Shown here: positions 5,963 to 50,794 of the stretch, piece after piece
Numbering within the stretch: the first letter of the stretch is position 1
How the letters are laid out: each line of letters opens with the position of its first letter
Virus record (IMG/VR): IMGVR_UViG_3300013105_000003
Coordinates: 1-64,000 of that record
DNA: 64,000 nt
Reading direction: 5' to 3' (one strand)
From: a virus
Lineage: Duplodnaviria; Caudoviricetes
Made by a program: the position numbers and the translations under genes
The notes under the pieces: generated by a model
Seen by the model: only the letters and a program-made list of their open reading frames with translations
What the model was told of the DNA's origin: nothing
Databases searched by the model: none

Positions 5963-7009
5963 GTGACAAAACAAGCACTAGCACTTGAGTACCGACCACG
6001 TACCTTTGAGCAGGTAGTAGGTCAGCACACTGTTGTTCCTGTATTACGTGCTTTTGCTAAAAAGAAGACACCACCACCTTTGATGGTATTCTCTGGTCCA
6101 GCAGGTACAGGTAAGACCTCTATGGCTAGGATTCTTGGGGCTGCCCTTAACTGCTCTAACCCAGCACCTGACGGTGATGCTTGTGGAGAGTGCTCACAGT
6201 GTCTCTCCGTGCAAGGCAACTTCTCTATGTCCTACATGGAGTACGATTCAGCTACTAATGGTAAAGTGGCTGATGTACAAAATGTACGAGAAGTTGTCTT
6301 GCACAAGCATGAAGATAACTTTAGAGTCATTGTGTTTGATGAGGCTCACGCTATTACTACCGCTGCATTCAATAGCCTTCTTAAGATATTTGAAGAGCCT
6401 CCTATTAACACAATATTCATTCTAGTGACTACTGATCCTCAGCAGATTCCTAGGACTATCCAGAGCCGTGCTCTGTCTTTTGATTTCAGAATCATACCTA
6501 TTGGTGAGGTTGCTAAGCGTCTACTTTCTATCTCTTCGGAACTTAACTTCCAGGCAGAGCCAACTCTCCTAGCGAAGATTGCCTACTATTCAAAGGGCCA
6601 TATCCGTGACGCTATTATGGAACTGGATAAGTGTTACCGGGTAGGCATGACTTCTGCTAAGGAGTACGATGAGATTACTTTTACAGGTGACTTTTCTAAG
6701 GATATCCTCTACGCAGCTGTTCACAAGGATCACAAAGCACTCTATGAGTCTGTAGAGAATTTCTTTAAGTACTCCTCTGACCTTAAGGAGTTCACCTCAC
6801 AGTTTGTCGATTCTCTCATTGCATTGTCTAAGGCTCTGGTTGGTTTACAAGCTGATGAGCGTACTATGGAGTTGTCTCGTAACATCTCTAAAGATCAAAT
6901 TATGAAGTGTTACGAACTAGTATGGAATATGCAAGATAGAGGGTCTGCTGTTAAGAATCCAAAGTCACAGGCGCATCTATTTACAGAGGTTCTACTCCAG
7001 GTATTGTGA
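5963..7009 (+). CDS. dnaX: DNA polymerase III gamma/tau-like clamp-loader ATPase
   Basis: ALEYRPRTFEQVVGQ, GPAGTGKT, Zn cluster C..CGECSQC, DEAH, AFNSLLKIFEEPP, TIQSR. Confidence 0.92.
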   Translation: MTKQALALEYRPRTFEQVVGQHTVVPVLRAFAKKKTPPPLMVFSGPAGTGKTSMARILGAALNCSNPAPDGDACGECSQCLSVQGNFSMSYMEYDSATNGKVADVQNVREVVLHKHEDNFRVIVFDEAHAITTAAFNSLLKIFEEPPINTIFILVTTDPQQIPRTIQSRALSFDFRIIPIGEVAKRLLSISSELNFQAEPTLLAKIAYYSKGHIRDAIMELDKCYRVGMTSAKEYDEITFTGDFSKDILYAAVHKDHKALYESVENFFKYSSDLKEFTSQFVDSLIALSKALVGLQADERTMELSRNISKDQIMKCYELVWNMQDRGSAVKNPKSQAHLFTEVLLQVL

Positions 7010-7013
7010 AATC

Positions 7014-7021
7014 ACGATAAT
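7014..7021 (+). promoter_or_regulatory. phage late-promoter motif ACGATAAT
   Basis: recurrent intergenic octamer, upstream of terminase genes. Confidence 0.75.
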
Positions 7022-7055
7022 GTGGTATACATATGTCCTAAGGTAAGGAACCACA

Positions 7056-7526
7056 TTGACTGACGACACACTAAATAAGGTAACAGAACTTACCTTTAAT
7101 ACTGGTAAGGAAGTCTCTGTAGGTCAAGAAAAACTTCTAGATTCAACAGGACTAACACCTGCTTTTCAGACAGCACGACAGGATTTATTTCAGTCATTAG
7201 TGTCAGAGAGACCAGACTACGATGTAACTCAGCTTGCTTACATGGAGCGTATATCATATCTACAGGCTCGCATTAAGCAGAAGGAAGCCACTGGTGGGTA
7301 CAGCTCTGAGCAGAATTACACAATGGCTAACAGAACATTGCTTGATACGTTGGCGGCACTCCGTAAGGCTGACTTAGAACGAGAAGACAGAACTAAGTTC
7401 CAGCGTGACTTTATGGAGACAGTAGCCAAGGCTGTCCAGTATGCTACCAAGGATCTTGATGAAGATTCTCAGGATAGAGTGAAGTTCCTCCTTAGCCGTA
7501 AGTTTGAGGAGTTGCTTGGTGGTTAA
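7056..7526 (+). CDS. putative terminase small subunit
   Basis: helical 156-aa ORF directly upstream of and overlapping TerL. Confidence 0.5.
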   Translation: MTDDTLNKVTELTFNTGKEVSVGQEKLLDSTGLTPAFQTARQDLFQSLVSERPDYDVTQLAYMERISYLQARIKQKEATGGYSSEQNYTMANRTLLDTLAALRKADLEREDRTKFQRDFMETVAKAVQYATKDLDEDSQDRVKFLLSRKFEELLGG

Positions 7527-9459
7527 TAACTTCTTTCTCGATGCCTTAAATAGCAATGACGACGATGATGATAGCAAAAGAGTCTCTTCTGAAGGAGAAG
7601 CTGAGCTATTTAAAATCTTCTCTGAGAAGCCTGCAACTCTTGAAGAGTTTCTCTCCGATGATAAGTACCTAGGGTCTACTCTGTCGGGTGCCAAGCTGTC
7701 CCCTATCCAGGAAGACTTTGTAAGACACTTCGTTCAAATTCTAAAACTTGAAACCTACAGCCTCATGGCAGAGGTGTGGGGGGAGGAGTGGAAGCCACTG
7801 CGGCGTGTCAACAACCTAGCCGTGGCCTGGGGTAAGGGGTCCGGTAAAGACTTCTGTGTGCAAATTGGGTTTGCTTATATCACTCACCAGCTTCTATGTC
7901 TAAAGTCTCCACAGTCTTACTACGGCCTACCAAATCACACCTATATTCACATGATGAACGTAGCTATTTCATCAACACAGGCATCAGAAGTATTCTTCAA
8001 GCCAATGAAAGACTTGTTCGTAGAGTCCCCTTGGTTTAAGGATAAGTTCGCCAATGGTGAACTACCTGCAGAGCGTATTGGTGTAATGCGTATGAAGAAT
8101 CGAATTGACCTAGTGTCAGGACACTCAGAAGCTAGCTCTCTTGAAGGAAAGAACCTTATTGCTGCAGTAGCTGACGAGATTGCAGGGTTTGCCACAGCAG
8201 CTGATGCTTCCTCCACAGGTCGTGCTCCTGCTAAGACAGCTGAGGGCATCATGAAGATGCTTAAGAGTAGTGCTCAGACTCGATTCGCGGGGCACTACAA
8301 GGTAGTACAAATCTCATTCTCCAGAAGATTTGGTGATGCTATTATGACAGCGTTGCGAGATGCCAAAGAGAACGAGAAAGAATATGGTGACGACTCTACC
8401 TACTATTCATGTGGACCTTACTCTACGTGGGAAGTAAATCCAAAGTTTCGTCATAACTTCGAGTTTATTGAAATCCCACAGTCTAAGCAACTTGTACCTA
8501 ATGATCCTGACATTCTTACAGACTACAGGAAAGATCCAGTATTTGCTAGAGGCTACTATGAGTGTAGACCAGAGAAGTCATCAAATCCTTACTTTAAGGA
8601 CAAGGAAGCAATTAAGAATGCTTTCTCTCGTAAGGTAGAGGAAGAGCCTTTACAGATTGAGTACTTCTACGGCATTGACCACCTAGAGGATGATAAGTAC
8701 CCCTCTTGGCAGGTTAGGTTTAGTTTACATAAACTTGTTCCCAATGAGAACTGCCTTTACGCCATACACGCTGATATGGCAAAGAATGGTGACGTAGCAG
8801 GTATAGCTATGTCACATGTTAAGGGATACGAGCAGATTGACACTACCACTTTTGATGGGTACTCCAACGAGGAACTTAGACCAATCGTCAAGGTAGACTT
8901 TGCTACTGCATTTACACACGATATGTCTGCTACTGACACACTAGGTAATTCTATTCCTAGAGAGATTCAGATGAGATGGTACCGTAAGCTAGTACTGTGG
9001 CTGACTGATAAGGGTTTTAATATAGTCTCAGTAACTATGGATGGATTTCAGTCCTTGGATTCTCTACAAACTCTAGAGGCTAAAGGGTATAATACTAATA
9101 GAGTAAGTACCGATCTAAATAATACAGTGTGGCAAACTCTCAGAGACGTGATGTATGACAGTAGGCTTGATGCTTACTACAACAAACATGTAATAGCTGA
9201 ATTTGAATCTTTGACACAGCTATCTACCGGAAAAGTAGACCATCCACCAGACTTCAGTAAGGACATTGCTGACGCTCTAGCTTGTTCTGTTGCAGGAGCT
9301 GTACCTCTAGGTGGGTCAGAGGATGACGGAGATGGTGTTAACTTCTTTACTGGTAGCAGTGATGCTGGCAATCCATTTGAAGGTGGACTGGATGAGAGTG
9401 GTTTTACTAACATAAGTATAGATCCAGATACTTCACTTTCCACAGGCTCATGGTGGTAA
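7519..9459 (+). CDS. terminase large subunit
   Basis: Walker A WGKGSGKD, Walker B AVADE, nuclease HADMAKNGD and VDHP..SKDIADA; GAGGAG before GTG 7519. Confidence 0.92.
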   Translation: MVNNFFLDALNSNDDDDDSKRVSSEGEAELFKIFSEKPATLEEFLSDDKYLGSTLSGAKLSPIQEDFVRHFVQILKLETYSLMAEVWGEEWKPLRRVNNLAVAWGKGSGKDFCVQIGFAYITHQLLCLKSPQSYYGLPNHTYIHMMNVAISSTQASEVFFKPMKDLFVESPWFKDKFANGELPAERIGVMRMKNRIDLVSGHSEASSLEGKNLIAAVADEIAGFATAADASSTGRAPAKTAEGIMKMLKSSAQTRFAGHYKVVQISFSRRFGDAIMTALRDAKENEKEYGDDSTYYSCGPYSTWEVNPKFRHNFEFIEIPQSKQLVPNDPDILTDYRKDPVFARGYYECRPEKSSNPYFKDKEAIKNAFSRKVEEEPLQIEYFYGIDHLEDDKYPSWQVRFSLHKLVPNENCLYAIHADMAKNGDVAGIAMSHVKGYEQIDTTTFDGYSNEELRPIVKVDFATAFTHDMSATDTLGNSIPREIQMRWYRKLVLWLTDKGFNIVSVTMDGFQSLDSLQTLEAKGYNTNRVSTDLNNTVWQTLRDVMYDSRLDAYYNKHVIAEFESLTQLSTGKVDHPPDFSKDIADALACSVAGAVPLGGSEDDGDGVNFFTGSSDAGNPFEGGLDESGFTNISIDPDTSLSTGSWW

Positions 9460-9469
9460 TAATACCACA

Positions 9470-9478
9470 GCCGATAAT
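9470..9478 (+). promoter_or_regulatory. late-promoter motif, exact sigma28 -10 consensus (GCCGATAAT)
   Basis: intergenic, upstream of portal. Confidence 0.75.
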
Positions 9479-9521
9479 ATGTACGTAGACTTTTCTAAAC
9501 TTAGAAGACTAGAGGTATGAC

Positions 9522-11138
9522 ATGGTAGAAGATAGCAATTCTCAAGGCAGAAAACTCCCTGACCTAGAGGATTCTATCAGTAAGGCTCCCGCCCCTGGCG
9601 AGGAAGCTTACGAGATGGGAATTCCTGCCGAGCTACCTGGTGCTACATGGGGTAGTTTCACATATAACCAGAAGTTCGGATTTTCTAAGTCTGGTGTTTT
9701 CCAAGTAGGTCAGACTGACGATCACGTGGATCTAGAAAATCTACGCAAGATGAGAATTCGTGATGGTCAGACTCGTGCTCTTCTAAGAATGTTCCAACTT
9801 CCTATTATGACCTGTCTTCGTGAGGGGGAGTGGATTCGTGACCCAGCTACTGTCGATAGTGAAAACGACGGTAAGGCAGAAGTAGACTTCGCAAATGCAG
9901 TATTCAAGACACCACTTCAGTCAGGTGGTATGGAAATTCCTATTCGTGATGTTTTAAAGAGTCTTCTACTAGCTATTTTTGAGTCGTCATCTACTCTAGA
10001 AGTAGTTACTGATATGGCTACCAAGGGTCCGATGAAGGGTCTCTATATCCCACGAAAAATTGCTCACAGAGATTTAAGAACTCTAACTCCCTTAGTAAAT
10101 GCACACGGAGACTTTGTAGGTGTTAGACAGAAAGCACTATCTCCAGGTGGAATACAGATTAACTGTGATATTTCTAAGAGTGATCTTCTCCGTTATGTTT
10201 GCAACGCCGATGAAGCACCAGTAACAGGTGTATCAATGTTTGAGTCTTCCTGGTTCCACTACCAAGTAAAGACTAAGCTGTACTATATCTCTAACATAGC
10301 TGCTCAATTCGCGTCAGTTCCAGGTCGTATCGGTACTGTCTCCCAGTCTTCTACACCTCCTCAGCGTGACGCTTTCCGTAGAGCACTTGCAGGATTTAGT
10401 CACAATACTTCAATGATTATGCCAGAAGGCTTCAAGGTAGACGCATTCAATGGAAATATAGGCTTCGACTTCATGAAGCTAATTGACCACCACAATCACC
10501 AGCAATCAAAGTCTGTACTACTACAGTTCATGGACAATGATACACGTATGGCAGTTATTGAAAATGGTGGACAAGACGCCAGTGCTGATATGTTCGTACA
10601 GGCTCTAAAGGCTATTATGGATGAGATTTCTGATGTATTCACTCATCAGCTCATGCCTAAGTACATTGACTGGAACTTTAAGTCAGACAACTACCCAATT
10701 TGGAGATTTGCACCTCTTACAGACTCCTCAAAGGATACTATCAAGGATCTATTCTCTACTTTTGCTACCGCTCAAACTCTTAACATTACACCAGAGTTCT
10801 TCCGTCAGCTGGAGAAGAAGGTAGCTTCTACTAATGGTCTAGATATCGACTACGGAACTATTGAGAAGAACGAGACTATTGCTTCTGAGAAGGCAGCTGC
10901 TATTGCACAGGCACAGGCAGAGGCACTAGACCTACGTGCTCAACTAGAGGGTGGTCAGCAAAATCCTAATAGTCCAACACCACCTTCTCAAGACCCTTCT
11001 TCTGCTGCTCCCGGTATAGGAGATACTAACAAGGCAGCCGCAGCTCTCTCTGGCGAGCCTTACCTAGATGCTATTGATGACCTTTACCGAAAGGCACAGC
11101 AACTATTCCTAGCAGAGCCTGAAGTTTTCGGAATGTGA
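9522..11138 (+). CDS. portal protein (DUF935/Mu gp29-like)
   Basis: follows TerL, 538 aa, F..LIDHHNHQQSKSVL and LMPKYIDWNF segments typical of this portal family. Confidence 0.85.
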   Translation: MVEDSNSQGRKLPDLEDSISKAPAPGEEAYEMGIPAELPGATWGSFTYNQKFGFSKSGVFQVGQTDDHVDLENLRKMRIRDGQTRALLRMFQLPIMTCLREGEWIRDPATVDSENDGKAEVDFANAVFKTPLQSGGMEIPIRDVLKSLLLAIFESSSTLEVVTDMATKGPMKGLYIPRKIAHRDLRTLTPLVNAHGDFVGVRQKALSPGGIQINCDISKSDLLRYVCNADEAPVTGVSMFESSWFHYQVKTKLYYISNIAAQFASVPGRIGTVSQSSTPPQRDAFRRALAGFSHNTSMIMPEGFKVDAFNGNIGFDFMKLIDHHNHQQSKSVLLQFMDNDTRMAVIENGGQDASADMFVQALKAIMDEISDVFTHQLMPKYIDWNFKSDNYPIWRFAPLTDSSKDTIKDLFSTFATAQTLNITPEFFRQLEKKVASTNGLDIDYGTIEKNETIASEKAAAIAQAQAEALDLRAQLEGGQQNPNSPTPPSQDPSSAAPGIGDTNKAAAALSGEPYLDAIDDLYRKAQQLFLAEPEVFGM

Positions 11139-11139
11139 C

Positions 11140-11886
11140 GTGCCTCTTATGAGTGTCACAAAGGACCAACAAGCACAGGCTAGCTCTACCTCTTCCACTG
11201 TGAGTAAGGCAGTGAAGGTGTTAGTAGTGATAATTGCTGGCTTGTCTGGTCTATTCATACTTAGACTTCTAGCTATTTTGAGAAATAGAAAGAATGAAAA
11301 GATAACAGATCAAGAAGCAAACTCTCAGATAGCTCAAGTTAAGAGTGACTGGTACGACAGAGTATCTAAGTCTGTTAGTGATGGGTGGGACCGAGGCACT
11401 ACTCTGGGTATGCAAGCTGCCAAGGCTCAGGGAGTGCAGCCTATGGGCAAGGGATCTAGTAATAAAGGTTCCTTGGATGATATACTTAAAGACCTTAGAA
11501 GGTCCATTGACGATGCTGAGACACTACTCAGGACTTCAGTAGACTCTAATGGTGAGTCAGACGTTAATAAGATTGTTAAAGTAATTTCTTTGAGACAGCA
11601 AATGTCAGGCGAAGCTGCACTGAAGTACGCAGTTGCTGAAACAATGGAATCAGAACTGGCAACTCCAGACACACAGAAGATGTGGGTATCTACTAACCCA
11701 GGAGAGCCTTGCTCACATTGTAGGAAGTTGAATGGCATGGTAAGGGATTGGGGAGAAGAGTTTCCCCATAGTTTTCCAGGCATTTATAAGTTAAAGGTTT
11801 ATGGTGGTGTCCTATTAGGACCACTACGGCACCCACACTGCATGTGTGTACTGATTAGAGTTCCAAAGGAGAGTTCCAATGCCTGA
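11140..11886 (+). CDS. MuF/SPP1 gp7-like minor head protein
   Basis: follows portal; KMW..CSHC..LNG and PLRHPHCMC motifs. Confidence 0.75.
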   Translation: MPLMSVTKDQQAQASSTSSTVSKAVKVLVVIIAGLSGLFILRLLAILRNRKNEKITDQEANSQIAQVKSDWYDRVSKSVSDGWDRGTTLGMQAAKAQGVQPMGKGSSNKGSLDDILKDLRRSIDDAETLLRTSVDSNGESDVNKIVKVISLRQQMSGEAALKYAVAETMESELATPDTQKMWVSTNPGEPCSHCRKLNGMVRDWGEEFPHSFPGIYKLKVYGGVLLGPLRHPHCMCVLIRVPKESSNA

Positions 11887-12319
11887 TTCACAAAGTGCTA
11901 AGAATGCCCATGATACTAATGTCAAAGCATCAGTTAGACATACTAAGAGTGGCAAGGTAGTTAACGTCCAATCTTTCGATAGGCATTTTGATGCTTTAGG
12001 AGAGACTCTTAAGGATCAACAGCATGTAGTTCCTATGGTAGCTACTCCAGGAAAGTGGCCTAATGGTAGATCAACACCAAGTTCCCCTTCCGTAATTAAG
12101 GCAGAGGCTGCTAGGCAGGATTCAGAACTAGCAGCTGCTCTAAAAGAAGTAGAGCAGCTTAAGGCACAGCTAACAGCTGTCAACGCTCCACAGCCGCAGC
12201 AGACACAGCAAGACTCTCCGAACCAGCCAACCTACTCTCCTAAGTATGGATACGGTGATGGTGTAGGGGACTTCCCAGGGCCTGCTACAGCTCCTCCAGC
12301 TGCACCTGCAGGGGCTTAA
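11879..12319 (+). CDS. hypothetical protein (head cluster)
   Basis: ORF with SD; basic RHTKSGKVVNV segment. Confidence 0.65.
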   Translation: MPDSQSAKNAHDTNVKASVRHTKSGKVVNVQSFDRHFDALGETLKDQQHVVPMVATPGKWPNGRSTPSSPSVIKAEAARQDSELAAALKEVEQLKAQLTAVNAPQPQQTQQDSPNQPTYSPKYGYGDGVGDFPGPATAPPAAPAGA

Positions 12320-12321
12320 GT

Positions 12322-12329
12322 ACGATAAT
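12322..12329 (+). promoter_or_regulatory. phage late-promoter motif ACGATAAT
   Basis: intergenic copy of the recurrent octamer. Confidence 0.7.
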
Positions 12330-12348
12330 CTATTAGGAGGTACGAGGC

Positions 12349-12735: not shown

Positions 12736-12767
12736 CACTAACTCTCACCAGAAAGGGTCGAAATCTT

Positions 12768-12971: not shown

Positions 12972-13003
12972 GTATCTAGTACTTAGAGTTTAAGGACATT
13001 TAC

Positions 13004-36341: not shown

Positions 36342-39300
36342 ATGAAGTACCTAGAGTTTTCACTTGTCGCATCCGGCAGAATCTTATTCAATGCTTTCTC
36401 TAAGCAATTTGACATTCAGGATGACTTCTCCCCCTCAACTTTGTCATTTAGTCTAGACCGTACTGATGCTGCTAACACAGACTTCTCAGGTGCTTTTGTA
36501 AAGGTAAAGGTTGACGGAGTTCAACTAAAGTCATATTACATTATTAATGGAAACTCAGTAGACTATGTAACCAGTGATGGTATACCTGCCAGGGCGTACT
36601 CAGCTTCTTCTATTCATAGTGAATTTGAAGACTCCCCAGTAGTCCCTTCCGCTTGGCCTAATCCAGTTCCATCAGGCCACGACTTCCAGAATGCCACTCC
36701 TGGAACTATTATCAAAACTCTAGTGACCAGAGTGCAGCAACTTGGATACCTTCAGAATATTGATACTTCGACTTTCACCGGAACACATGACTCTAATGGT
36801 GTGACGTGGCCTTCTATGATGGATAGAAGTTACACTACAGGTGATACAATTCTATCTGTTATCCAAGGTCTCTACACTGATGGTATGTGTGACCCCGAAA
36901 TGGATGGTTATTCTCTTAACGTATACGTTGCAGGTGGTCTAGATAAGACACTAACTCCAGATAAGGTTGTCTTTAGAGTAGGACAGAACCTTACTGAAGG
37001 CTCTACTACCACAGATGCTTCTGATTTCTACACTGATATCTTTGCTATTGGTGACGGTAGTGCAGCAGTTATGAAAACTCGACCAGCTTCTTACAACGTT
37101 CTTGGTCGTAGAAGAATGAGGTTTGCTCAGTACGCTGGTATTACTGACGTTAACCTTCTTGGTGTTCTTGCTGACCTAGAACTAGATCAGTATAATCACA
37201 TTAAGACAGAGCGTTCTTGTTCTGTCTCCCCAGACTTCTACACACCTTTTGTTGACTATAACATTCACAACTTAGTACCTTTTGATAAGGGTGACGGTTC
37301 TCTAGAGAATATTAGAATCAAGCAAATTTCTGTCACTCAGAGTGACGAGGATGGGTCTTTCTCAGTTGGTATTACTCTAGGTGATATCCTTGAAGATGCT
37401 GACCAGAAACTGAAGCGCAGACTAGACGCTATCACAGGTGCAAATGCTGGTGGTGGAGCAGTACCTAGTGATAAAACTGATGACAAGATGCCACCTGCAC
37501 CTCCTGTCTCTATTAGTTTTACAACTACACCATACCTTGACGACCAGACACGTAGAAAAGTTCTGGCTATAATTAACTGGCCCCCAGTTACAACTAATGC
37601 TGATGGTACCCCAGCAGCAGACATTGACCACTATGAAATTCAGTCGAAGGTAGGAAATGCTGCAGATTTTGGTCCCGTATCCACTGTCCCTACTGCACAA
37701 GCTGTAGTGTCTGGATATGACCCTAGTACAAAGCTACAGGTTAAAGTTAGAACTATAGACACTTCAGGACTAGCTTCAACTTGGACTACCTCTAGTGTCT
37801 ACACCATGATTGACAACACACCTTCTACCCTAAAAACTCCATCTACTCCAACAGTTACCGCCAAGTACCAAAACCTAACTATTACTTGGGATGGTAAGGA
37901 TAATCTAGGAAATTTCCCAACTTTAGATTGTGTTGCTATAGAGGTCCACTTAGCTACAAGTTCGGCTACCTTCACTCCTACCTCCGCTACCAGAATTGGT
38001 GTAATTTCCTATATCACTTCTGGTGTAGGTGGATTTACTACGGTAACTAATTTACTTCCTACCACGACTTACTATGTCCGTTTTATAGCTCTTGGTAAGA
38101 ATGGAACTGTCTCACCAGCATCTACCTCAGGAAGTGCTACTACTGAAGCACTCATCGTTGACCCAGCGGTTATTACTCAGATCAACACTGACGTAACCAA
38201 TACCAAAAATACTGTTGCTCAGAACGTCACTGACCTGAATCAAGCCAAGACTGACCTGTACAGTCCTGGTGGGACAGTTGACCTGGTGAAGACCACGCTT
38301 ACGGGTCAGATCACGTCGGGTGACACAGCTACTCTGAATGCTGCTAAGTCAGATGCTCAGGCCAAGGCAGACGCAGCGAAGCTGGCAGCAACTACCGCAG
38401 CTGCTGCCGACGCACAGACGAAAGCCAACGCGGCTCAACAAGCTGCTGTGACTGCGGCCACCACCGCAGCTGCTGCGGATGCTCAGGCCAAGGCTGATGC
38501 TGCTACCGCAGCTGCTACAGCAGCCGCCGCAGCTGATGCGAAGACTAAAGCTGACGCTGCCCAATCTGCTGCTACAGCAGCCGCTAAGACGTATGCAGAC
38601 GCTCAGGTATCCGGTGCAAGCACCACGACACTCGCTACCGCTGCTGCTGATGCTCAGGCCAAGGCAGACGCAGCGAAGCTGGCAGCAACCACCGCAGCTG
38701 CCCTGGATGCTCAGGCCAAAGCTGACGCTGCTAAGTCAGCTGCAACTACAACGGCTGCTGCTGATGCTACGACAAAAGCGAACAACGCTAAGCAAGCTGC
38801 TATTGATGCCGCCGCGCTCGACGCCACAGCGAAGGCCAATCAGGTTGCAGCAGAGGCTCAGTCTCGTGGCCCGGACCTAGTAACCAACGGTACTGGGTAC
38901 TTGGGAACGAACCGGAATTTCACATCTTCTCTAACATTTACAGCAGCTGATGCCCCTCCTGGTATGCCCGGTGCATTTATTCGTACTTCTGGCTCGTATG
39001 CTTCCATCTTCTCCGATGACTATATTCCAGTAGACCCTACTCGAAAGTATGTCCTGAGTGCATGGGCACGTGAGACAGCAAGCACCGGAGTTTCTAGGTT
39101 TTACTCTGGATTTACTGCGTATGATTCACAGAATACAGCTATTCAACCACTGCACTACTGGTACGAGCCAACCACCAGTACGACTATTGCAGCCTCCCTG
39201 AAACCTGGAGATACAACGGCTACCGTTGTCAGTGGTGCCGGGTGGGTAGCTAGTGCCTCCCAGTTCCTTCTAGCTTGGAACTACACAGATACTGCTGGTC

Positions 39301-42197
39301 GTGTATGGCCTATCGGTACCTACTCACGGTGGACTGGAAACATCGCATCAGTATCTGGGAACACCATTACGCTATCTACAGCTTGGACAGGTCCAACTCT
39401 TCCTGTAGGTCACCCTGTAGTTAACTCACACAACGGAGGAAACTATGTCTACTGTGTTGCGTCTAACGCAACAGTACCCACAGTCTGGACAAAGTTCACG
39501 TCCCCCGTCATCACTGGAACCACAGATGGCAGCAAGGGTTATGCAACTGTAAACTTTCCTCCAGGTACAGCAAAGATCAAGTTCCTATTCTTGTCTCAGT
39601 ACACAGGATCAGCTGCTGACTGTCGTCAGGCATATAGCGGAATTTCCATGTCGGAGGCAGGTGCTGCACAAGCTACTGCCGATGCTGCACAGACAACTGC
39701 GTCCGGTAAGAACACTATTTCTTGGTACACCACCGCTGCACCTGCACTGGCACCAGGCACTCAGTCTGGTGATATCTGGAACCAGTACGTCATCCGCACA
39801 GCTGCCTACATAGCAGCACAGCACCCTGAGTGGACCGCTGCACAGAAGGCCGCAGCTGCCGACAACCGTATGGCTATTCTGGCCTCTTGGCAGTCAGATG
39901 GGACTAACTGGAAATCCTCTGCACTGTCCGAGACGTATCTTCCACAGGTCAACATCGGAGTAGGTACTTACGGTGAGCTGGACGGTATCCGGCTTAAGGC
40001 AACCTCTGTCCAAGCTGACGTTGTGGTGGTGAAGGGTTCTGTTGACGATACTGTCATTAAAGATGGTGCAGTTACCACAGATAAGATATTTGCAGGTGCA
40101 GTTACTGCTGGTAAAGTAAGTGCCAATGCTATCACTGCTGACAAGATTGATGCTACTTCTTTAATTGCTAGTAATGTTAGTGCACAGAACATAGCCGCAA
40201 ACCTAGGCACGTTCATGCAGATTAAGGCCAATAATATCTTGGCTGGTAATATTAATGTGGCATTGACATTTACTGCTGGTGGTAAGGGTATCTTCGGTGA
40301 TCCAAACGGAGTTAACACCACTATTGACGGTACTGACGGGTCGGTTCGGACCAACAAACTTGACCCAGATGGAAATATTTACCCTTCTACCATGCTGGGT
40401 GGGGCTGGTAAGGACTTGCTGCAAATTGGTAATGATACTAACCCATCAGCAGCAGCGATTACATCTAACGGTGACATTACTGCAAACACTGTCGCTTCTG
40501 TAGGAGATATGAGTGTTGGTGGTATGCCCCTGATTGGTTCTAGAGTTTCTCCTGGAACGGTCATCAGGACCAACTACTTCCCCACATCACAAGATTTTGA
40601 AAACGGGATGGTGGCTCCCACCTACACCGGGAGTTGCACGGCAGCTATATCAACCGCGTTCGTGCACTCTGGCACGAGTTCTTGCGCTATCACTGCAACA
40701 GCCACCGCAACGGGCGCTCAAGCTTTCTGGACTGGTACAACCGGTACTACAATGGGCGTAAGCACGGGAGACACCGTGACGCTCTCCGCGTGGATGTACA
40801 TTCCCTCAACAGTCACCCAGAACGCCAACAACGCCATAAAGCTGACGGGTGGTGCGTTCGCTGCTACAGCGGGCGTCAACCCTAACTGGACTCTGCGAAA
40901 CCAGTGGCAGCGGGTATCTGTCACTGCTACTGTCACCACTGTCACTGGTAACATCTACCCGACTCTATGTGCGCCTGCAACTAATGGGCAAGTTATCTAC
41001 TTTGACGACGTGCAGCTAGAGGTCGGTAGCGTTGCTACTGACGCTTTCAGTGTGAATAGCCAGTCGCTCGGATACAGCTACATGTTCCTTCCCAGTACGT
41101 GGATAGCTTTGGAATATACTCCAGCGGCTCCCCTTGGGTACAGCGACACGTTGTCTTGGGGTTGTGTAGCAAGAGCACCTTTCGCTTCCATAGTCCAAGG
41201 CAAAACCATCACAGCCGGTGGAAGCATCTCCCCCATCGGGCAGTTCTCAGTGGCTCTGGACCCGTGGCGCAGCTACCAGCTGGTGATGCACTGGCGTGGC
41301 TACACAGGCACTACAGGGTCGTACAGCAACGTCACGACCCGGTTCTACATGACCAACGCGACAGACCCCAACGGTGAGGCACCCGACCCCACAACGGCAG
41401 GAGTCGCTCTAGGTCAGCAATCAGAAAACTTTGTTGGTAATACTGCCACTGGACTTGATGATCAGCTGACCATCAACTTCACAACTGACGATCCTTCTGG
41501 TGTTGGTGCGAAGGTGCAGTACAAATTCTTGCTTGGAATTTTTGCAAACGGTAACACCTTCACACCGGACACTGTAAACGTTCCTACCCAAGATAACTGG
41601 GTAGTTACTATCTTCGATACTGGTAGGGTTCCGTGGCCCTCCCCAGTCACTGTTCCTGGTGCTGGTACTAAGCGTACTTACATATCTACCTGGAATGCTG
41701 ATAACTCTAGGTCGTGGGGCGCTAACGGAAGTGTATACACAATTAGTGGTAGTACTACTGGTTACATTAGACAGGGTGTTACTAATGGTGTGCAGTACTA
41801 TGGTGCAGTCTCATTTGGTGGGAAGGCAGTCAGTGGAGAAACCACTAAGACAATTGCACAGGCTGTTCCTAGTGGTGCACTCATTCAGAAGGCCGAAGTG
41901 TTTATGCACATCAACTGGTCCGCAGATGACACTGGGCAGATCAAGATGCGCCCACTTGGTGCCAATGCTGTTCCTTCTACTATGGCAACTCCGACTGGTG
42001 CTAGTCCTGTCATTTACAACTTCAACTCACATAGTGCCGGTGCATGGATTCAAGTTCCCACGTCTTGGTTCACTACGACCAACAACGGTGTCATTATCGC
42101 TACCCCAGACTGGCTCTTCAACAACAGTCAGTTTGCTGGAGCTGCGCACCCAACAGCTTCTTGGCGACCACAGGTTAGACTCACATACACCCGATAA
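36342..42197 (+). CDS. tail tip/Tal-central fibre protein (FN3 domains, coiled coil, CBM-like modules)
   Basis: 1951 aa after Dit; FN3-like segments, Ala-rich repeats, AVTADKI repeats, C-terminal RPQVRLTY. Confidence 0.82.
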   Translation: MKYLEFSLVASGRILFNAFSKQFDIQDDFSPSTLSFSLDRTDAANTDFSGAFVKVKVDGVQLKSYYIINGNSVDYVTSDGIPARAYSASSIHSEFEDSPVVPSAWPNPVPSGHDFQNATPGTIIKTLVTRVQQLGYLQNIDTSTFTGTHDSNGVTWPSMMDRSYTTGDTILSVIQGLYTDGMCDPEMDGYSLNVYVAGGLDKTLTPDKVVFRVGQNLTEGSTTTDASDFYTDIFAIGDGSAAVMKTRPASYNVLGRRRMRFAQYAGITDVNLLGVLADLELDQYNHIKTERSCSVSPDFYTPFVDYNIHNLVPFDKGDGSLENIRIKQISVTQSDEDGSFSVGITLGDILEDADQKLKRRLDAITGANAGGGAVPSDKTDDKMPPAPPVSISFTTTPYLDDQTRRKVLAIINWPPVTTNADGTPAADIDHYEIQSKVGNAADFGPVSTVPTAQAVVSGYDPSTKLQVKVRTIDTSGLASTWTTSSVYTMIDNTPSTLKTPSTPTVTAKYQNLTITWDGKDNLGNFPTLDCVAIEVHLATSSATFTPTSATRIGVISYITSGVGGFTTVTNLLPTTTYYVRFIALGKNGTVSPASTSGSATTEALIVDPAVITQINTDVTNTKNTVAQNVTDLNQAKTDLYSPGGTVDLVKTTLTGQITSGDTATLNAAKSDAQAKADAAKLAATTAAAADAQTKANAAQQAAVTAATTAAAADAQAKADAATAAATAAAAADAKTKADAAQSAATAAAKTYADAQVSGASTTTLATAAADAQAKADAAKLAATTAAALDAQAKADAAKSAATTTAAADATTKANNAKQAAIDAAALDATAKANQVAAEAQSRGPDLVTNGTGYLGTNRNFTSSLTFTAADAPPGMPGAFIRTSGSYASIFSDDYIPVDPTRKYVLSAWARETASTGVSRFYSGFTAYDSQNTAIQPLHYWYEPTTSTTIAASLKPGDTTATVVSGAGWVASASQFLLAWNYTDTAGRVWPIGTYSRWTGNIASVSGNTITLSTAWTGPTLPVGHPVVNSHNGGNYVYCVASNATVPTVWTKFTSPVITGTTDGSKGYATVNFPPGTAKIKFLFLSQYTGSAADCRQAYSGISMSEAGAAQATADAAQTTASGKNTISWYTTAAPALAPGTQSGDIWNQYVIRTAAYIAAQHPEWTAAQKAAAADNRMAILASWQSDGTNWKSSALSETYLPQVNIGVGTYGELDGIRLKATSVQADVVVVKGSVDDTVIKDGAVTTDKIFAGAVTAGKVSANAITADKIDATSLIASNVSAQNIAANLGTFMQIKANNILAGNINVALTFTAGGKGIFGDPNGVNTTIDGTDGSVRTNKLDPDGNIYPSTMLGGAGKDLLQIGNDTNPSAAAITSNGDITANTVASVGDMSVGGMPLIGSRVSPGTVIRTNYFPTSQDFENGMVAPTYTGSCTAAISTAFVHSGTSSCAITATATATGAQAFWTGTTGTTMGVSTGDTVTLSAWMYIPSTVTQNANNAIKLTGGAFAATAGVNPNWTLRNQWQRVSVTATVTTVTGNIYPTLCAPATNGQVIYFDDVQLEVGSVATDAFSVNSQSLGYSYMFLPSTWIALEYTPAAPLGYSDTLSWGCVARAPFASIVQGKTITAGGSISPIGQFSVALDPWRSYQLVMHWRGYTGTTGSYSNVTTRFYMTNATDPNGEAPDPTTAGVALGQQSENFVGNTATGLDDQLTINFTTDDPSGVGAKVQYKFLLGIFANGNTFTPDTVNVPTQDNWVVTIFDTGRVPWPSPVTVPGAGTKRTYISTWNADNSRSWGANGSVYTISGSTTGYIRQGVTNGVQYYGAVSFGGKAVSGETTKTIAQAVPSGALIQKAEVFMHINWSADDTGQIKMRPLGANAVPSTMATPTGASPVIYNFNSHSAGAWIQVPTSWFTTTNNGVIIATPDWLFNNSQFAGAAHPTASWRPQVRLTYTR
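38340..38870 (+). repeat. about eight DAxxKAxxA Ala-rich repeats (~19-aa period) in tail-tip protein
   Basis: 41-nt identical duplication at 38352 and 38649. Confidence 0.8.
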
Positions 42198-42428: not shown

Positions 42429-42465
42429 CGGTCTACAAACCTTAAAGTAATAGTAAAGAGTAAAA

Positions 42466-45478: not shown

Positions 45479-45978
45479 GTATTCTATTGCGAACTGTTCA
45501 TGGATCACATTTATACAACTTAAACCATGATAACTCAGACACAGATTACTATGAGGTTTACTCTGGAAAGGGTAGAGCCAAACAGACTATAGTAGGAGAT
45601 ATTGATACACTACGTATAAGCTATGACTCTTTCATGTTCCAGTGTCGTAAAGGTGTGCCTCAGGCACTAGAGGCTTTGTACTCACCTGTTAAAGAGATAG
45701 ATGAAATACCTTTTATCACAGATTCATTTAATCCTATAAGTACAGAAGTTTATAAGACTTATGTACGGACTATTAGGAATTTCTGGAAAGAGGGTAGCCT
45801 GAAGAGAAAACGTCATGCTGTCAGGCTTTGTATCAATCTATCATGTATAATGAGGTATGGAAGGTTTAACCCCTCTCTAACTCAGATAGAGAAAATATTC
45901 GTAGTAGCCTATGGAGACGTGGACGAAGAGGAATGTCCAGCTCTTAACATGTTAGGATTCCCACTTTATATATGGTAG
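45475..45978 (+). CDS. Pol-beta superfamily nucleotidyltransferase (RlaP/YcgL-like)
   Basis: GSHLYNL..NSDTDY motif and KGVPQALEAL. Confidence 0.75.
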   Translation: MSILLRTVHGSHLYNLNHDNSDTDYYEVYSGKGRAKQTIVGDIDTLRISYDSFMFQCRKGVPQALEALYSPVKEIDEIPFITDSFNPISTEVYKTYVRTIRNFWKEGSLKRKRHAVRLCINLSCIMRYGRFNPSLTQIEKIFVVAYGDVDEEECPALNMLGFPLYIW

Positions 45979-46748
45979 ATAAAAAGAAGCCAAAAGTATC
46001 TATTGCTCCTAACGAAGATGAGAGGTGGAGTTTAGCCAAGGCAGGTAATACTGAGGCGCAAAACTCACTTGTTATAGAGCATGAGCCACTAGTGTATCAA
46101 GTTGTAGGAACAATGATCTTCAAGTTCCCTGACCACATTGAGGCTGATGACTTACACTCTTACGGCATGTTAGGGCTGTGGAAGGCTGTGAAGACCTATG
46201 ACCCTTCCAAGGCATCCTTCCGCACCCATGCAGCTTTTAGGATTAGGAATGCGATCTATGATGAGTTGCGCATCCAGGACTGGGCACCTGTAACAGTTCG
46301 TCAGAAGGCCAAGGAACTAAATAAGCTAAGAGAAGAATTCGTTAAAACTAACCGAAGACCTCCTACAGACGAAGAGCTAGGGGAGCTAGTAGGTAAGGAC
46401 GAAGACTGGGTACGCACTTTCAAACAACAGCTTGAAGCAACAGAGCACCGCCCGATGGAAGAACTAGAGAACACGTATGGTAGTATAGAAGCAGTACCAG
46501 ATTTCTCTACCTCTAAGAATGTATCAGAGTCCGGTGCTATGGCTTTAATCCTGCAGCAGTCCTTTGTGAGTTGGTTAGATGAACTACCCAACTCTCTCAA
46601 GTGTTTGTGGATAGTGATATACTACTGTGGTAAGTCTAAAAAAGAAGCAATGGTTATACTAGGCTTACGAACATACGAAATATCAGAACAGAATAAAAGA
46701 CTCATCAATGAGTTCAGGAAATTTTACGAGCATTTACAGTTAAACTAA
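45972..46748 (+). CDS. RNA polymerase sigma factor, FliA/WhiG (sigma28) family
   Basis: DDLHSYGMLGLWKAVKTYDP, FRTHAAFRIRNAIYDELRIQDWAP..VR, RPPTDEEL. Confidence 0.9.
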   Translation: MVDKKKPKVSIAPNEDERWSLAKAGNTEAQNSLVIEHEPLVYQVVGTMIFKFPDHIEADDLHSYGMLGLWKAVKTYDPSKASFRTHAAFRIRNAIYDELRIQDWAPVTVRQKAKELNKLREEFVKTNRRPPTDEELGELVGKDEDWVRTFKQQLEATEHRPMEELENTYGSIEAVPDFSTSKNVSESGAMALILQQSFVSWLDELPNSLKCLWIVIYYCGKSKKEAMVILGLRTYEISEQNKRLINEFRKFYEHLQLN

Positions 46749-46761
46749 GAGAGGCTTTACA

Positions 46762-48183
46762 TTGGATTACTCTGCCGTTGTCTTAGCAGGAATCATACCA
46801 AATAGCCTTGAAAGTTTCATTCATGCTAGAAACAGACTTAGCCCTGAGAACTTCAAAGATGACCCTTACAATGGTTATTTGTGGAGACTACTAACCTCAG
46901 TAGTTGACAAGTACAACCAATTACCCTCTCCTGAGGTAGTGAGAGACTCTGTAGAGCAGAGTATGGATTCAGCTTCCGCTGCTCTTACCTTGCAGAAGTA
47001 TGTTGAGTACGCTAAGACTGCTGTATCCTCCGGTGATTTTAAGTACGCGGTAGACCAGCTACTTGATGAGGAGACTACTCGTAGGACTGGTGAGGCTCTA
47101 GCTATTGCCTATCAAATCTTTGATACTGGGTTTGAGAAAGATGGAGTATCTCACCAAGGGCATGAGGCTGTACGAGAGTTTCTTCTAACAGAAATCTCTT
47201 CTATTGATAAGACATATTCCTATGCTGATATGGATGAGGGTTCCATCTCAAGCAGCGTCAATGATATTCTCAAGGAATACCAGCACACTAAAGAGTCTGG
47301 TGACTTGTCGTATATCCCTAGTGGTATAAAGTGTATTGACGATGCTATTGGTGGTGTCTCCGTAGGAGACTTAGGTCTTATTGGAGCCTACACTTCAATG
47401 GGTAAGAGTCAGCTGTCAGTACATTGGGCCTACCAAGCTGCCATGCAAGGAAAGAATACTTATTACGCAACTACTGAGACAACACGCGGACAGATCATTA
47501 ACCGTATGCTGGCTAGGCACTCAAGGAACCCTAAGTTTGGTCTGCCAGACGGCTTGGACCATAAGAAAATTCGTCTAGGCCAGTTGAGCGAAGAGCAGGA
47601 AAAAGCTTTCTATATGGTCCTGAAGGATTTCAGAGACAACAAAGACTACGGGAAACTATTCATTGCTCAGCTAGCAGGTAACACTACAGTACAGTCACTA
47701 GAGCAGCAAATGATGAAAGAGCAAAGAGAATGGAACATTGACCTATGTGTAGTTGACTATCTCAACCTCCTGAAGCCTACTCGAAAGCGTAACAGTGCCG
47801 TAGAAGAAGGTAATGATAAGCTATCAGAGGCTAAGGTACTAGCTACTTCCTTCAACGGTCATGGAATTGCTATCATTAGTCCTTGGCAGATGAACCGAGA
47901 AGGTTATGACGAAGCTCTCATCTCTCAAGAGTTCCGTATTGATAGACTAGCTCAGACTTCAGAAGCTGAGAAGTCAGCTGACTGGATTATCTCACTTTAT
48001 CAGGACCAGGAACGTAAGAACGAAGTATATCTTAAACTACTAAAGACTCGTGACTCAGCTTTCGGACCAAAGGAGAAGGTATCTGTGGACTACCGTAATG
48101 CTTTCTTTAGCAGTGGTCAGGCTACTGGAATGAATCTAGGATTCTCTAAGGGTGGTTTTGACGGACTAGGGATTTCACTATGA
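46762..48183 (+). CDS. dnaB: replicative DNA helicase
   Basis: GAYTSMGKS, VVDYLNLL, QMNR, EKSAD, LKTRD. Confidence 0.88.
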   Translation: MDYSAVVLAGIIPNSLESFIHARNRLSPENFKDDPYNGYLWRLLTSVVDKYNQLPSPEVVRDSVEQSMDSASAALTLQKYVEYAKTAVSSGDFKYAVDQLLDEETTRRTGEALAIAYQIFDTGFEKDGVSHQGHEAVREFLLTEISSIDKTYSYADMDEGSISSSVNDILKEYQHTKESGDLSYIPSGIKCIDDAIGGVSVGDLGLIGAYTSMGKSQLSVHWAYQAAMQGKNTYYATTETTRGQIINRMLARHSRNPKFGLPDGLDHKKIRLGQLSEEQEKAFYMVLKDFRDNKDYGKLFIAQLAGNTTVQSLEQQMMKEQREWNIDLCVVDYLNLLKPTRKRNSAVEEGNDKLSEAKVLATSFNGHGIAIISPWQMNREGYDEALISQEFRIDRLAQTSEAEKSADWIISLYQDQERKNEVYLKLLKTRDSAFGPKEKVSVDYRNAFFSSGQATGMNLGFSKGGFDGLGISL

Positions 48184-48815
48184 GTGATAATCCTCTAGCA
48201 AAGTATCTTCCTAAAGAAGATGCCTCTAGAAGTAGTGCTCTGGACCTCATAGAGAGAGCTAATGCGCAGTTTTCATGTGTGGATATTCTCAATAGAGAGT
48301 ATGGCTATGAGATACCAAAGGGAGGCTCTGGATCGACAAAGCAACACTGCCTGTGGGGGTGGGAGCACAAAGACGGTGGTGTAGAGAAGTGTATGCGCTA
48401 CTACTGGGAAAGTGACACAGCTTACTGTTTCCGAGACCACGGAGTAATTGATGTGGTGTCTATTAGAGCTACCCAAAAAGGTCTGTCTAAGCTACGAACA
48501 GCCAAGCTGCTTCTCACAGAAGCAGGTATTTTTAATAATGATCCTTGGAATGTTAGAGTAGAGAAAGCACAGGAACATCTAAAGAATCCTACGAAGCATA
48601 CTATGGATATGAGACTTGCCGAGAGTATGTATACCTCCAGGTTGAAATCCATTGAGGGTTATGGTACTCTACAGTATAGGTCTGAGGTAGTGAATCTAAA
48701 GAACTCCATGATGGAGGAACTAGATCCTTCTTGGAACTCTGAGAAGTTACTAGAGTGGATAGAGAAGTCGAGAACTAAGATGGAAGTTGCAATAGAGTGG
48801 CTAAGAAAGACCTAG
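48180..48815 (+). CDS. primase-like Zn-binding domain protein
   Basis: follows helicase; C..H..YCF CHC2-like pattern; no TOPRIM motifs. Confidence 0.55.
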   Translation: MSDNPLAKYLPKEDASRSSALDLIERANAQFSCVDILNREYGYEIPKGGSGSTKQHCLWGWEHKDGGVEKCMRYYWESDTAYCFRDHGVIDVVSIRATQKGLSKLRTAKLLLTEAGIFNNDPWNVRVEKAQEHLKNPTKHTMDMRLAESMYTSRLKSIEGYGTLQYRSEVVNLKNSMMEELDPSWNSEKLLEWIEKSRTKMEVAIEWLRKT

Positions 48816-49018
48816 ATAATTTCTGTAATGGAAAGATAACACAGCCTCACCTCCCTAAGATCACCAAGGGTGGAAGATTCCTTGGTGATAACTCACTGTG
48901 TAGGTGGGTTGGGAAAGTTTATGTTTGCACTCATTACATCTCTTGTGGTGAGTGTGGACGTGTACTTAAGTATGAGTGGCAGATGAAGAAAGAAGATTGT
49001 CCAGACTTCCATGAGTGA
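48797..49018 (+). CDS. small Cys-rich hypothetical protein
   Basis: several Cys incl. CGEC; overlaps both neighbours. Confidence 0.5.
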   Translation: MAKKDLDNFCNGKITQPHLPKITKGGRFLGDNSLCRWVGKVYVCTHYISCGECGRVLKYEWQMKKEDCPDFHE

Positions 49019-49829
49019 TCTACTTGGTTACGAAGGCATCGACCGTTTGTATGAGTTTACAGATGGTCTAGCTCCTATTCTCCTACTAGGGCCTGCTGGC
49101 CTAGGTAAGAGTAGGTGGTGCCAGACTAGAGCAGAAGAGTTTGCTGGCAAGTCGATGACCAAAGTATTGACCTTTCCTAGAGTCGCAGACTTAGATGAAT
49201 ATGCTGAAATTTATGCTGGTCAGTTTAAGAACTCGTGGTCTCTAGACCTAACCCAGATTTTCTCAGGTAAGGCAACTAATCTTTTAGTAGTTCCAGCACT
49301 TGCTTCATTCCTAAGAAAAGCATCTAATCCATTTACGAGAGTTTTTCTACACTCTGATAATCCTGTTTCTCCTGAGATACGAAACCTTGTAACTGAAGTC
49401 AGTGTACCCTTGTTGTCTGATTCTGCCATGAGACAGCTCTGCAAAGAAAGAGGATTTGAGTATGATGAGACAGAGTTTGCTGTAGACTTTGCTCAGGGAA
49501 TACCTGGGGATATCTCCACTGCCTTCTCCGTGCTCAAGCGCCGAACGATGGTATTTGAGTTTCGTGAGTTGCTTATGGAAGACAAGATTGGTAAGATGGA
49601 AGACGAGATTAAGAAGTCTGTCAAGTCTTCTGATATCATGTACTTACATAATATTCTCAACTCCTTTGATACTGGGAAGTGGACTCTCTTTAAGGAACAC
49701 GAGGTAGCTTTTCTTAAGAGGGTACAGGAATTGATGCGGAACGTTCTGAGTTACACAAACTCTAACGCAGAGATTTCCTTTGTCACAGTATTTCATGCAG
49801 CTGCACACGCTTATCACGGAAGGGTATAA
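49011..49829 (+). CDS. clamp-loader delta-prime (HolB)-like AAA+ protein
   Basis: LLLGPAGLGKS P-loop, degenerate Walker B, FAQGIPG lid motif. Confidence 0.55.
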   Translation: MSDLLGYEGIDRLYEFTDGLAPILLLGPAGLGKSRWCQTRAEEFAGKSMTKVLTFPRVADLDEYAEIYAGQFKNSWSLDLTQIFSGKATNLLVVPALASFLRKASNPFTRVFLHSDNPVSPEIRNLVTEVSVPLLSDSAMRQLCKERGFEYDETEFAVDFAQGIPGDISTAFSVLKRRTMVFEFRELLMEDKIGKMEDEIKKSVKSSDIMYLHNILNSFDTGKWTLFKEHEVAFLKRVQELMRNVLSYTNSNAEISFVTVFHAAAHAYHGRV

Positions 49830-50794
49830 TGGCTAGAGTACATATGCACGACTTTAACAAGTTGCGTTATAGTGGTGCAAAGAATGCTCGTGCCATTGCT
49901 GTACTTGGTGACTTAGGTGTAGCACGCTGTGAGTCTGTAGAAGCCATTCTAAGAGGCTACAAAGAGAAGAACCTCCCCGTACACCACTCTTACGCTGAGA
50001 ACTCTGCACAGCTGTTCCTAGACCTCTCACAGCGTAACATGTATGGATCTGAGTCTGTGTATGTAGCAGAGAATGCAGCAGAGTGGCTGAGTGAAAGTGA
50101 TGTTCCCAAACTACACCGCCTACTGGCTAAGGTTGCTGGGCAGACTAACCTTATCGTCACTGGAAGTAAATTTACTAACCTTGAGGTTGCAGAGCAGTTC
50201 AAACGATCTATGTCTGCTACATATAATATAAACTTCTCCTCGACGGATGCTGGACAGAAACATGTCCAGACATTAGTAGAGCGAGAATTTGACCTCAGCG
50301 AAAAGCAAGCTATACTTCTGTCAGATAAGTTACAGTACAATGTGGATAGTATACTTCAGCTGTCAACTAAGGCCAAAGCCTTTGATAACTTAACATACCC
50401 AGAGCTAGACGATTTAGCAGAGGCTTCCAAAGACATTGCCTTTGCTGAGGCACTGATTAGGCTACGTCTGGCAGATGCTATGTCACTAACAGAGAATATG
50501 ACAAGGAACAATGCAGAAATGACCCTGCTAACTGTTCTACGACATTTCCGACACATTACCACAATCTATCCAGTTACTCGTCAAGTGAAGATGCCAGGAG
50601 TAGCACAGTCCAAACAGGTACGTCTTCCTTTGAAGACTATCCAAAGATGGTGGACTATTGCAGGCAGATATCCCCCGAGAGAACAAATTCGTCGTCACTT
50701 GCTTTTGGTCGAAACGTCTGATAGGATATACCGAGAGCCGAACCGCGCCAAGAATACTTTTGGTGCTTTTGAACGTCTAGTCTTATCATGGTAA
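49829..50794 (+). CDS. putative clamp-loader delta (HolA)-like protein
   Basis: size, adjacency to delta'-like gene, LSQRNMYG resembling HolA SLF segment, terminal FERLVL. Confidence 0.45.
   Translation: MARVHMHDFNKLRYSGAKNARAIAVLGDLGVARCESVEAILRGYKEKNLPVHHSYAENSAQLFLDLSQRNMYGSESVYVAENAAEWLSESDVPKLHRLLAKVAGQTNLIVTGSKFTNLEVAEQFKRSMSATYNINFSSTDAGQKHVQTLVEREFDLSEKQAILLSDKLQYNVDSILQLSTKAKAFDNLTYPELDDLAEASKDIAFAEALIRLRLADAMSLTENMTRNNAEMTLLTVLRHFRHITTIYPVTRQVKMPGVAQSKQVRLPLKTIQRWWTIAGRYPPREQIRRHLLLVETSDRIYREPNRAKNTFGAFERLVLSW

Follow-up and report, generated by a model that had tools for sequence, protein, structure and literature searches.

A divergent bacterial-type clamp-loader gene set alongside a beta clamp and a family A DNA polymerase in a complete 125-kb phage genome

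Introduction

Does a phage with a family A DNA polymerase (PolA) also encode a complete bacterial-type clamp loader, and which clamp would that loader serve? The question was raised by a 64,000-nucleotide stretch of phage DNA (hereafter the window), which is the first 64 kb of the complete 125,231-bp IMG/VR phage record IMGVR_UViG_3300013105_000003 with direct terminal repeats. A first-pass annotation had named three open reading frames (ORFs) in this window: a clear dnaX and, 42 kb away and just upstream of polA, an adjacent pair resembling holB and holA. It noted no clear clamp gene and proposed that the phage loads either the host beta clamp or a divergent clamp of its own for a PolA replisome. 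All three ORFs are present at the positions given in Table 1, and their arrangement relative to polA is as described.

By gene content and homology, the phage carries a self-contained clamp system of the bacterial type, composed of DnaX, a delta-prime-like subunit, a delta-like subunit and its own beta clamp. We consider it likely that the three subunits form a phage-autonomous loader of the gamma3-delta-delta-prime type, which acts on the phage beta clamp and serves PolA.

The phage encodes a gamma-length DnaX and its own beta clamp

The DnaX protein reached the curated cut-off of 250 for the NCBIfam model TIGR02397 (dnaX_nterm; 2.5e-74, 250.7 bits), with amino acids (aa) 4-346 spanning model positions 2-353 of 355. 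Matches to Pfam DNA_pol3_delta2 (4e-28) and to phrog_5846 'clamp loader' (2e-62) were also obtained. All of its ATPase motifs are intact, namely Walker A GPAGTGKT (aa 45-52), Walker B DEAH (aa 126-129), sensor 1 TTD, the arginine finger SRA (aa 168-170) and sensor 2 GHIRDA, and so is a zinc module of four cysteines (C64, C74, C77 and C80). The initial call of a clear DnaX is thus well founded. The protein ends after domain III, so that only the gamma form is encoded and tau domains IV-V, which bind DnaB and Pol III alpha, are absent. This absence is expected, because Pol III alpha (PF07733) was not found in the complete 125-kb genome. PolB (PF00136) was not found there either, and PolA is therefore the only polymerase detectable in the genome, which agrees at the level of gene content with the proposed PolA replisome.

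The statement that there is no clear clamp gene holds for the window; the complete genome, however, has a dnaN gene outside it. The encoded protein contains the three beta domains (PF00712, 2.3e-15; PF02767, 6.6e-4; PF02768, 1.1e-3), aligns with TIGR00663 over aa 1-339 (2.2e-27, below the trusted cut-off), and finds only beta clamps as its best sequence matches in the PDB. It is acidic, with an isoelectric point (pI) of 5.5, and an acidic pI in viral beta/PCNA homologues has been tied to ring clamps that need a loader (Kazlauskas and Venclovas; PMC3201878). Between a host clamp and a divergent clamp of the phage's own, these features favour the latter and largely settle the choice.

Profile-profile comparison links the adjacent pair to HolB and HolA

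Neither of the two adjacent proteins matched any Pfam, PHROGs or NCBIfam model. The HolB models TIGR00678 and PF13177 gave no match to the delta-prime-like protein at E <= 1, and the HolA models PF06144, PF21694 and TIGR01128 gave none to the delta-like protein. With tblastn, neither protein had a match in 50,697 phage records, and phmmer and hmmsearch of the single proteins and the family profiles against PDB sequences yielded nothing of significance. Because there was no simple sequence match, the proposed resemblance to HolB and HolA had to be assessed by profile-profile comparison.

An exhaustive profile search of 1.84 billion proteins yielded 14 matches at E <= 0.001 for the delta-like family, from which 12 full-length members with identities down to 22% were aligned. 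The delta-prime-like family comprised 9 cluster representatives with identities down to 31%. Reference profiles were built from 23 HolA, 29 HolB and 16 DnaX proteins drawn from a spread of Pseudomonadota genomes. In hhalign, reversed templates scored probabilities of 0.1-0.8% and known families recovered each other at 95-100%, indicating that the method is both sensitive and discriminating.

The delta-like family aligned with HolA at a probability of 96.8% (E 2.7e-10, 297 columns), against 16% for HolB, 8.9% for DnaX and 0.1% for the reversed control. The alignment is colinear over the full length, pairing aa 6-319 with HolA 7-329 of 343, and one family member matched PF06144 itself (E 0.017). 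Consistently, the ESM Atlas model of the delta-like protein gave a template modelling (TM) score of 0.72 to HolA clusters (residues 7-321), and its feature scores against clusters of PF06144 were 0.95-0.96. Foldseek with an AlphaFold2 model returned 1jr3_D, 3glh_A and 1jqj_C, all delta chains of E. coli, in the highest ranks (E 2e-4 to 2e-3). Residues M71-Y72 align with L73-F74, the clamp-binding wrench of E. coli delta.

For the delta-prime-like family, HolB was recovered at 96.5% (E 7.6e-10), HolA at 2.0% and DnaX at 2.9%. When gp62 of the cultured Microbacterium phage Magritte (OR553905.1; see below) was added, HolB rose to 98.3% (E 2.3e-14, 201 columns) and HolA to 3.1%; DnaX reached 95.1% (E 3.4e-8), still weaker than HolB. 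The alignment with HolB is colinear from the N-terminus and takes in the lid and the start of the collar. In the ESM Atlas, all ten structural neighbours of the delta-prime-like protein belong to clamp-loader subunit families (TM 0.61-0.67), the matched clusters being of RFC, DnaX and HolB type over residues 1-272. A shallow profile of 4 sequences was set aside: with it, a single E. coli HolB aligned only at the Walker B-like segment, and phage DnaX only at the P-loop. Taken together, hhalign assigned one protein of the pair to HolB and the other to HolA with lower cross-family scores, and both resemblances drawn in the first-pass annotation stood, that of the delta-like protein over its full length.

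These matches also bear on a role of the pair outside clamp loading, in which the P-loop protein, partnered by the delta-like protein, would load the helicase or act as some other AAA+ adaptor. The pair directly follows the DnaB and primase-like genes, the ESM feature neighbours of the P-loop protein are generic AAA+ families including a DnaA-like cluster, and the Magritte homologues were named only 'ASCE ATPase' by SEA-PHAGES annotators. However, the HolB and HolA profile matches are specific and extend beyond the AAA+ core, the structural neighbours of both proteins are all clamp-loader subunits, and the degenerate ATPase motifs described below are hard to square with an active loader ATPase. 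We regard this role as very improbable.

The delta-prime-like protein has degenerate ATPase motifs and no arginine finger

The delta-prime-like protein carries the P-loop GPAGLGKS, and GxxGxGK is kept across its family. The following residue in the family is S, A, K or R rather than S/T, and the Walker B position holds D, N or E followed by a hydrophobic residue, with the catalytic Glu absent. The zinc module found in HolB and DnaX is deleted. At the position of the SRC motif the nine members read NLV, SGT, SVS, DVT, ALC, DVA, DSC or DVC. The lid motif GIPG corresponds to GSPG of E. coli delta-prime, in which Gly replaces the sensor 2 Arg, and the C-terminus HAYHGRV is invariant in the family. 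The description as a HolB-like, degenerate AAA+ protein with a P-loop was therefore accurate. Judged by its sequence, the protein is a delta-prime homologue, which we call delta-prime-like rather than an orthodox HolB because the SRC arginine finger, a defining feature of a working delta-prime, is missing.

A cultured phage shares the same genome plan

The family profiles found one gene each in Magritte, gp67 for the delta-like family (E 8.7e-13) and gp62 for the delta-prime-like family (E 4e-6). Magritte gp67 matched TIGR01128 holA over nearly its full length (1.7e-13; 50.6 bits, below the cut-off of 80), and gp62 matched TIGR00678 holB (9e-7) and four further delta-prime models, its best NCBIfam matches being HolB models. 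This path, from the family profiles through the Magritte proteins to curated holA and holB, lends transitive support to both assignments. Magritte gene 4 encodes a DnaX (PF13177, 1e-19) with 31% identity to that of the window (E 2e-63), and a DnaN-like frame lies at 128,140-128,442. None of the three Magritte loader genes is annotated as a clamp-loader subunit.

The plan of the two genomes (133 kb in Magritte, 125 kb here) is the same, with DnaX near the terminase gene at the left end, the clamp near the right end, and DnaB, primase, delta-prime-like, delta-like and PolA genes (gene 69, DNA polymerase I, in Magritte) in the same order between them. Magritte differs in that the identities are just 22-31%, four small ORFs separate the delta-prime-like and delta-like genes, gp62 keeps the arginine of its SRG motif, and its DnaX has no zinc module. 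With E. coli HolA as the query, phage records gave three matches only, all of them apparently bacterial contigs.

The recurrence of this set bears on whether phage and host machinery are mixed, that is, whether the phage pair assembles with DnaX/tau of the host, or the loader of the phage acts on the host's beta clamp. Host Pol III could be recruited in this way, or host clamps could be stripped to shut down host replication. The distance of 42 kb between dnaX and the pair would suit such a mixture, and a delta-prime-like protein without an arginine finger could serve passively, as an adaptor. A further point in its favour is that the delta subunit of E. coli, when free, can open beta and unload it. 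On the other hand, a DnaX with all motifs and a full-length DnaN are both encoded by the phage itself, and all five genes of the set reappear in the distant genome of Magritte, pointing to a co-adapted phage set. The pair is moreover too distant from bacterial HolA and HolB for ordinary searches, so that its fit to host partners is doubtful. Mixed machinery thus appears unlikely.

The delta-prime-like and delta-like genes overlap at a conserved junction

The two genes overlap by one base in a TAATG, with the delta-prime-like stop codon TAA at 49827-49829 and the delta-like ATG at 49829-49831, as read directly from the sequence. The delta-prime-like gene ends in GGA AGG GTA TAA and so supplies a Shine-Dalgarno-like run. 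A scan of metagenomes for related loci returned two, one of which, L008, shows 31-39% protein identity and shares the junction layout: GGGAGGGTTTAATG. No match to the locus was found by megablast among cultured phage records, and an IMG/VR related-locus search with two alignments returned no relatives. The overlap and the Shine-Dalgarno-like run, shared by L008, indicate that the two genes are probably translationally coupled, with roughly equimolar synthesis predicted. The codons for HAYHGRV (window 49806-49831; L008 6786-6812) double as a GGAGG-like ribosome-binding site plus the TAATG overlap, and these residues may be under dual constraint. In Magritte, where the gene is apart from the delta-like gene, the delta-prime-like protein ends differently, in VLRGE.

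L008 preserves the order sigma factor, DnaB, primase-like, delta-prime-like, delta-like, PolA, and so does Magritte apart from a few small inserted ORFs, at identities of 22-39%.

Such conservation is relevant to whether the pair is what remains of a clamp loader in decay, with DnaX working alone as a homo-oligomer, the arrangement that earlier surveys took to apply to phages with a gamma homologue only. Catalytic motifs have indeed been lost in the delta-prime-like protein, and surveys of viral replicases in 2011 and 2016 recorded only a gamma homologue in RSL1 and Ma-LMM01, phages with PolA and a beta clamp (PMC3201878, PMC4889955). Both family profiles likewise found nothing in RSL1 and Ma-LMM01, nor in Nodularia phage kac68v161 or Erwinia phage Alexandra, though such subunits may still exist in these phages. 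Yet both ORFs are intact, the two families hold 9 and at least 12 members with identities down to 22-32%, and the many invariant residues and the conserved overlap junction form a pattern of purifying selection. Delta and delta-prime are, besides, non-catalytic by nature. Decay of the pair is exceedingly improbable.

A model of a phage-autonomous clamp loader

The assignment of gamma, delta-prime-like and delta-like subunits, as first interpreted from the window, is supported by profile, model and transitive evidence. Taking the gamma3-delta-delta-prime complex of E. coli as a guide, we infer the assembly of these subunits, their 3:1:1 stoichiometry, clamp loading and the use of the clamp by PolA. 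The C-terminal helical domains would hold together three DnaX protomers with a single delta-like and a single delta-prime-like subunit, and the TAATG coupling of the two non-ATPase subunits would fit their 1:1 production. The delta-like subunit would open the phage beta dimer, ATP-bound DnaX would place the clamp on primed DNA, and the clamp would tether PolA in a replisome with the adjacent DnaB helicase.

With the arginine finger of the delta-prime-like subunit lost, the neighbouring DnaX ATP site would, by the E. coli mechanism, not be activated in trans, as no trans-acting Arg stands beside it, and the loader may run on two competent sites. We tentatively propose, as a possibility we hold with less than even confidence, that a fully inert delta-prime, with neither arginine finger nor zinc module nor usable ATP site, operates in a bacterial-type loader with a family A polymerase. 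If true, hydrolysis would be permanently lacking at one of the three DnaX ATP sites, and nature would have provided a minimal form of the gamma-complex, from which one could learn how few active sites suffice for a loader of the bacterial type.

Several observations weigh against a working phage-autonomous loader. Both proteins of the pair fall below every curated family threshold, and no Arg occurs at the SRC position in any of the nine delta-prime-like members (NLV in the window protein), whereas a counterpart is kept elsewhere, as SRG in Magritte gp62 and SRA in gp18 of Streptococcus phage Dp-1. The wrench of the delta-like protein is half conserved across its 12 members, the first position being mostly hydrophobic (commonly L) and the second variable. 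Both AlphaFold2 models, built from shallow alignments of 4 and 6 sequences, are poor, with predicted local distance difference test (pLDDT) values of 45 for the delta-like and 43 for the delta-prime-like protein. The Foldseek comparison suggested in the first-pass annotation gave a divided result: even with the poor model of the delta-like protein, the E. coli delta chains ranked at or near the top, with low global TM due to that model, and the model of the delta-prime-like protein returned nothing meaningful. In addition, the gene order, with dnaX 42 kb from the pair, gives no sign of co-regulation, and no conserved clamp-binding motif was found in the N- or C-termini of PolA from this phage, L008 and Magritte. 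A lead at the PolA N-terminus (MTKRDFQGIF in the window, MAQKGLF in Dp-1) was rejected, as the L008 and Magritte termini share no such motif.

Comparison with known clamp loaders

The design itself is already known, having been annotated in Dp-1 (HQ268735.1) since its GenBank deposit and being present in a few other cultured phages. The Dp-1 record lists gp10 as DnaN, gp17 as DnaX, gp18 as 'gamma-tau subunit' and gp19 as 'HolA'; gp18 passes PF13177 (6e-11) and gp19 passes PF21694 (1.2e-6), and against the HolB and HolA reference profiles they reached 97.1% and 97.6%, respectively. Relatives that carry a gp19 homologue include phage MS1, Bacillus phage Flasso (where it is labelled 'DNA polymerase III delta subunit') and Clostridium phage phiCTP1. 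Like the phage studied here, Dp-1 combines a beta clamp, a gamma-length DnaX, delta-prime-like and delta-like subunits and a family A polymerase. Its three loader genes are contiguous, whereas dnaX lies 42 kb off the pair here. Dp-1 gp18 keeps the SR arginine and both gp18 and gp19 pass Pfam, in contrast to the window pair, neither of which matches curated models and whose delta-prime-like member is devoid of both arginine finger and zinc module. Compared directly, profile to sequence, the window families resemble gp18 and gp19 weakly (77% and 13% probability). A sigma-28-like protein is encoded in Dp-1 2.1 kb downstream of the loader genes.

The E. coli gamma complex (gamma3-delta-delta-prime; PDB 1JR3, 3GLF) contains, by profile, the same three kinds of subunit, and the delta alignment is colinear and full length. 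Here, however, there is no tau extension, chi or psi, the partner polymerase is of family A and not Pol III alpha, and the delta-prime-like protein is 60 residues shorter, without the zinc module or the SRC arginine. T4 likewise encodes a pentameric AAA+ loader, a ring clamp and its own polymerase (gp44/gp62, gp45 and a family B polymerase), the assembly being predicted in the present case. In T4, however, the system belongs to the RFC/PCNA type: each clamp subunit has two domains, and gp62 joins four copies of a single ATPase subunit (PMC4889955). The system described here is bacterial-type, its beta clamp having three domains and its homologues of delta and delta-prime being separate.

The novelty lies in the lineage itself, which is very divergent: no curated model recognises the accessory subunits, dnaX lies 42 kb from them, and the delta-prime has lost both its arginine finger and its zinc module. 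Delta and delta-prime partners can thus go undetected by Pfam, PHROG and NCBIfam models even where they are encoded, and phage clamp loaders scored as 'gamma only' may be complete. Two protein families that were orphans thereby gain a function, as do three Magritte genes labelled 'ASCE ATPase'. A delta-prime without an arginine finger offers a small natural variant for work on the clamp-loader mechanism, and Magritte a culturable relative in which to study a replisome of PolA and beta clamp.

Table 1 Coordinates of the clamp-system and replication features. Positions refer to the window unless another source is named
Feature	Position	Strand	Details
DnaX, gamma-length clamp-loader ATPase	5963..7009	+	348 aa; TIGR02397, Pfam and PHROG matches
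DnaB-like replicative helicase	46762..48183	+	PF03796 1e-22; phrog_19 7e-54
Small protein with zinc-finger-like region	48180..48815	+	211 aa; counterpart of Magritte gp59 by position and sequence
Delta-prime-like (HolB-like) inert AAA+ subunit, putative	49011..49829	+	272 aa; hhalign to HolB, ESM Atlas, family alignment
Coupling junction, predicted	49818..49831	+	GGAAGGG Shine-Dalgarno-like run within the last codons of the delta-prime-like gene
Delta-like (HolA-like) subunit without P-loop, putative	49829..50794	+	321 aa; hhalign to HolA, ESM Atlas, Foldseek
Family A DNA polymerase with 3'-5' exonuclease domain	51400..53628	+	742 aa; PF00476 2.4e-74, phrog_17 3.7e-87
Beta clamp DnaN	genome 117,821-118,921	-	366 aa; outside the window
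Magritte gene 4 ('ASCE ATPase')	L160:1292-2377		DnaX
Magritte gene 62 ('ASCE ATPase')	L166:7505-8302		Delta-prime-like
Magritte gene 67 ('ASCE ATPase')	L166:9290-10282		Delta-like

Neighbouring genes

The small protein encoded between DnaB and the delta-prime-like subunit aligned with Magritte gp59 ('DNA primase') in a Cys/His-rich segment (BLASTP, 38% identity over 64 aa, E 4e-11). It had no Pfam match and no obvious catalytic primase domain, and it may represent a primase fragment with the zinc finger alone, or else an accessory protein. Directly upstream of DnaB, a sigma-70-family factor is encoded at 45972-46748 (Sigma70_r2, 5.5e-17), and the same position is filled in L008. Between the delta-like gene and polA lies a 199-aa ORF (50804-51403) with no Pfam or PHROG match and no positional counterpart in L008 or Magritte, which appears to be lineage-specific.

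In L008, DnaB (2716-5205) is 829 aa long with LAGLIDADG and Hint matches, compared with 473 aa in the window, and PolA (7974-11369) is 1131 aa long with its DNA_pol_A match split in two, compared with 742 aa. From these sequence features, the L008 proteins appear to carry inteins that the window versions do not. Just upstream of dnaX, a polynucleotide kinase/phosphatase (4535-5515) combines a PNKP HAD domain (2e-46) with a P-loop kinase domain. The structural region of the window contains two giant ORFs, at 24740-33628 (2962 aa) and 36342-42197 (1951 aa).

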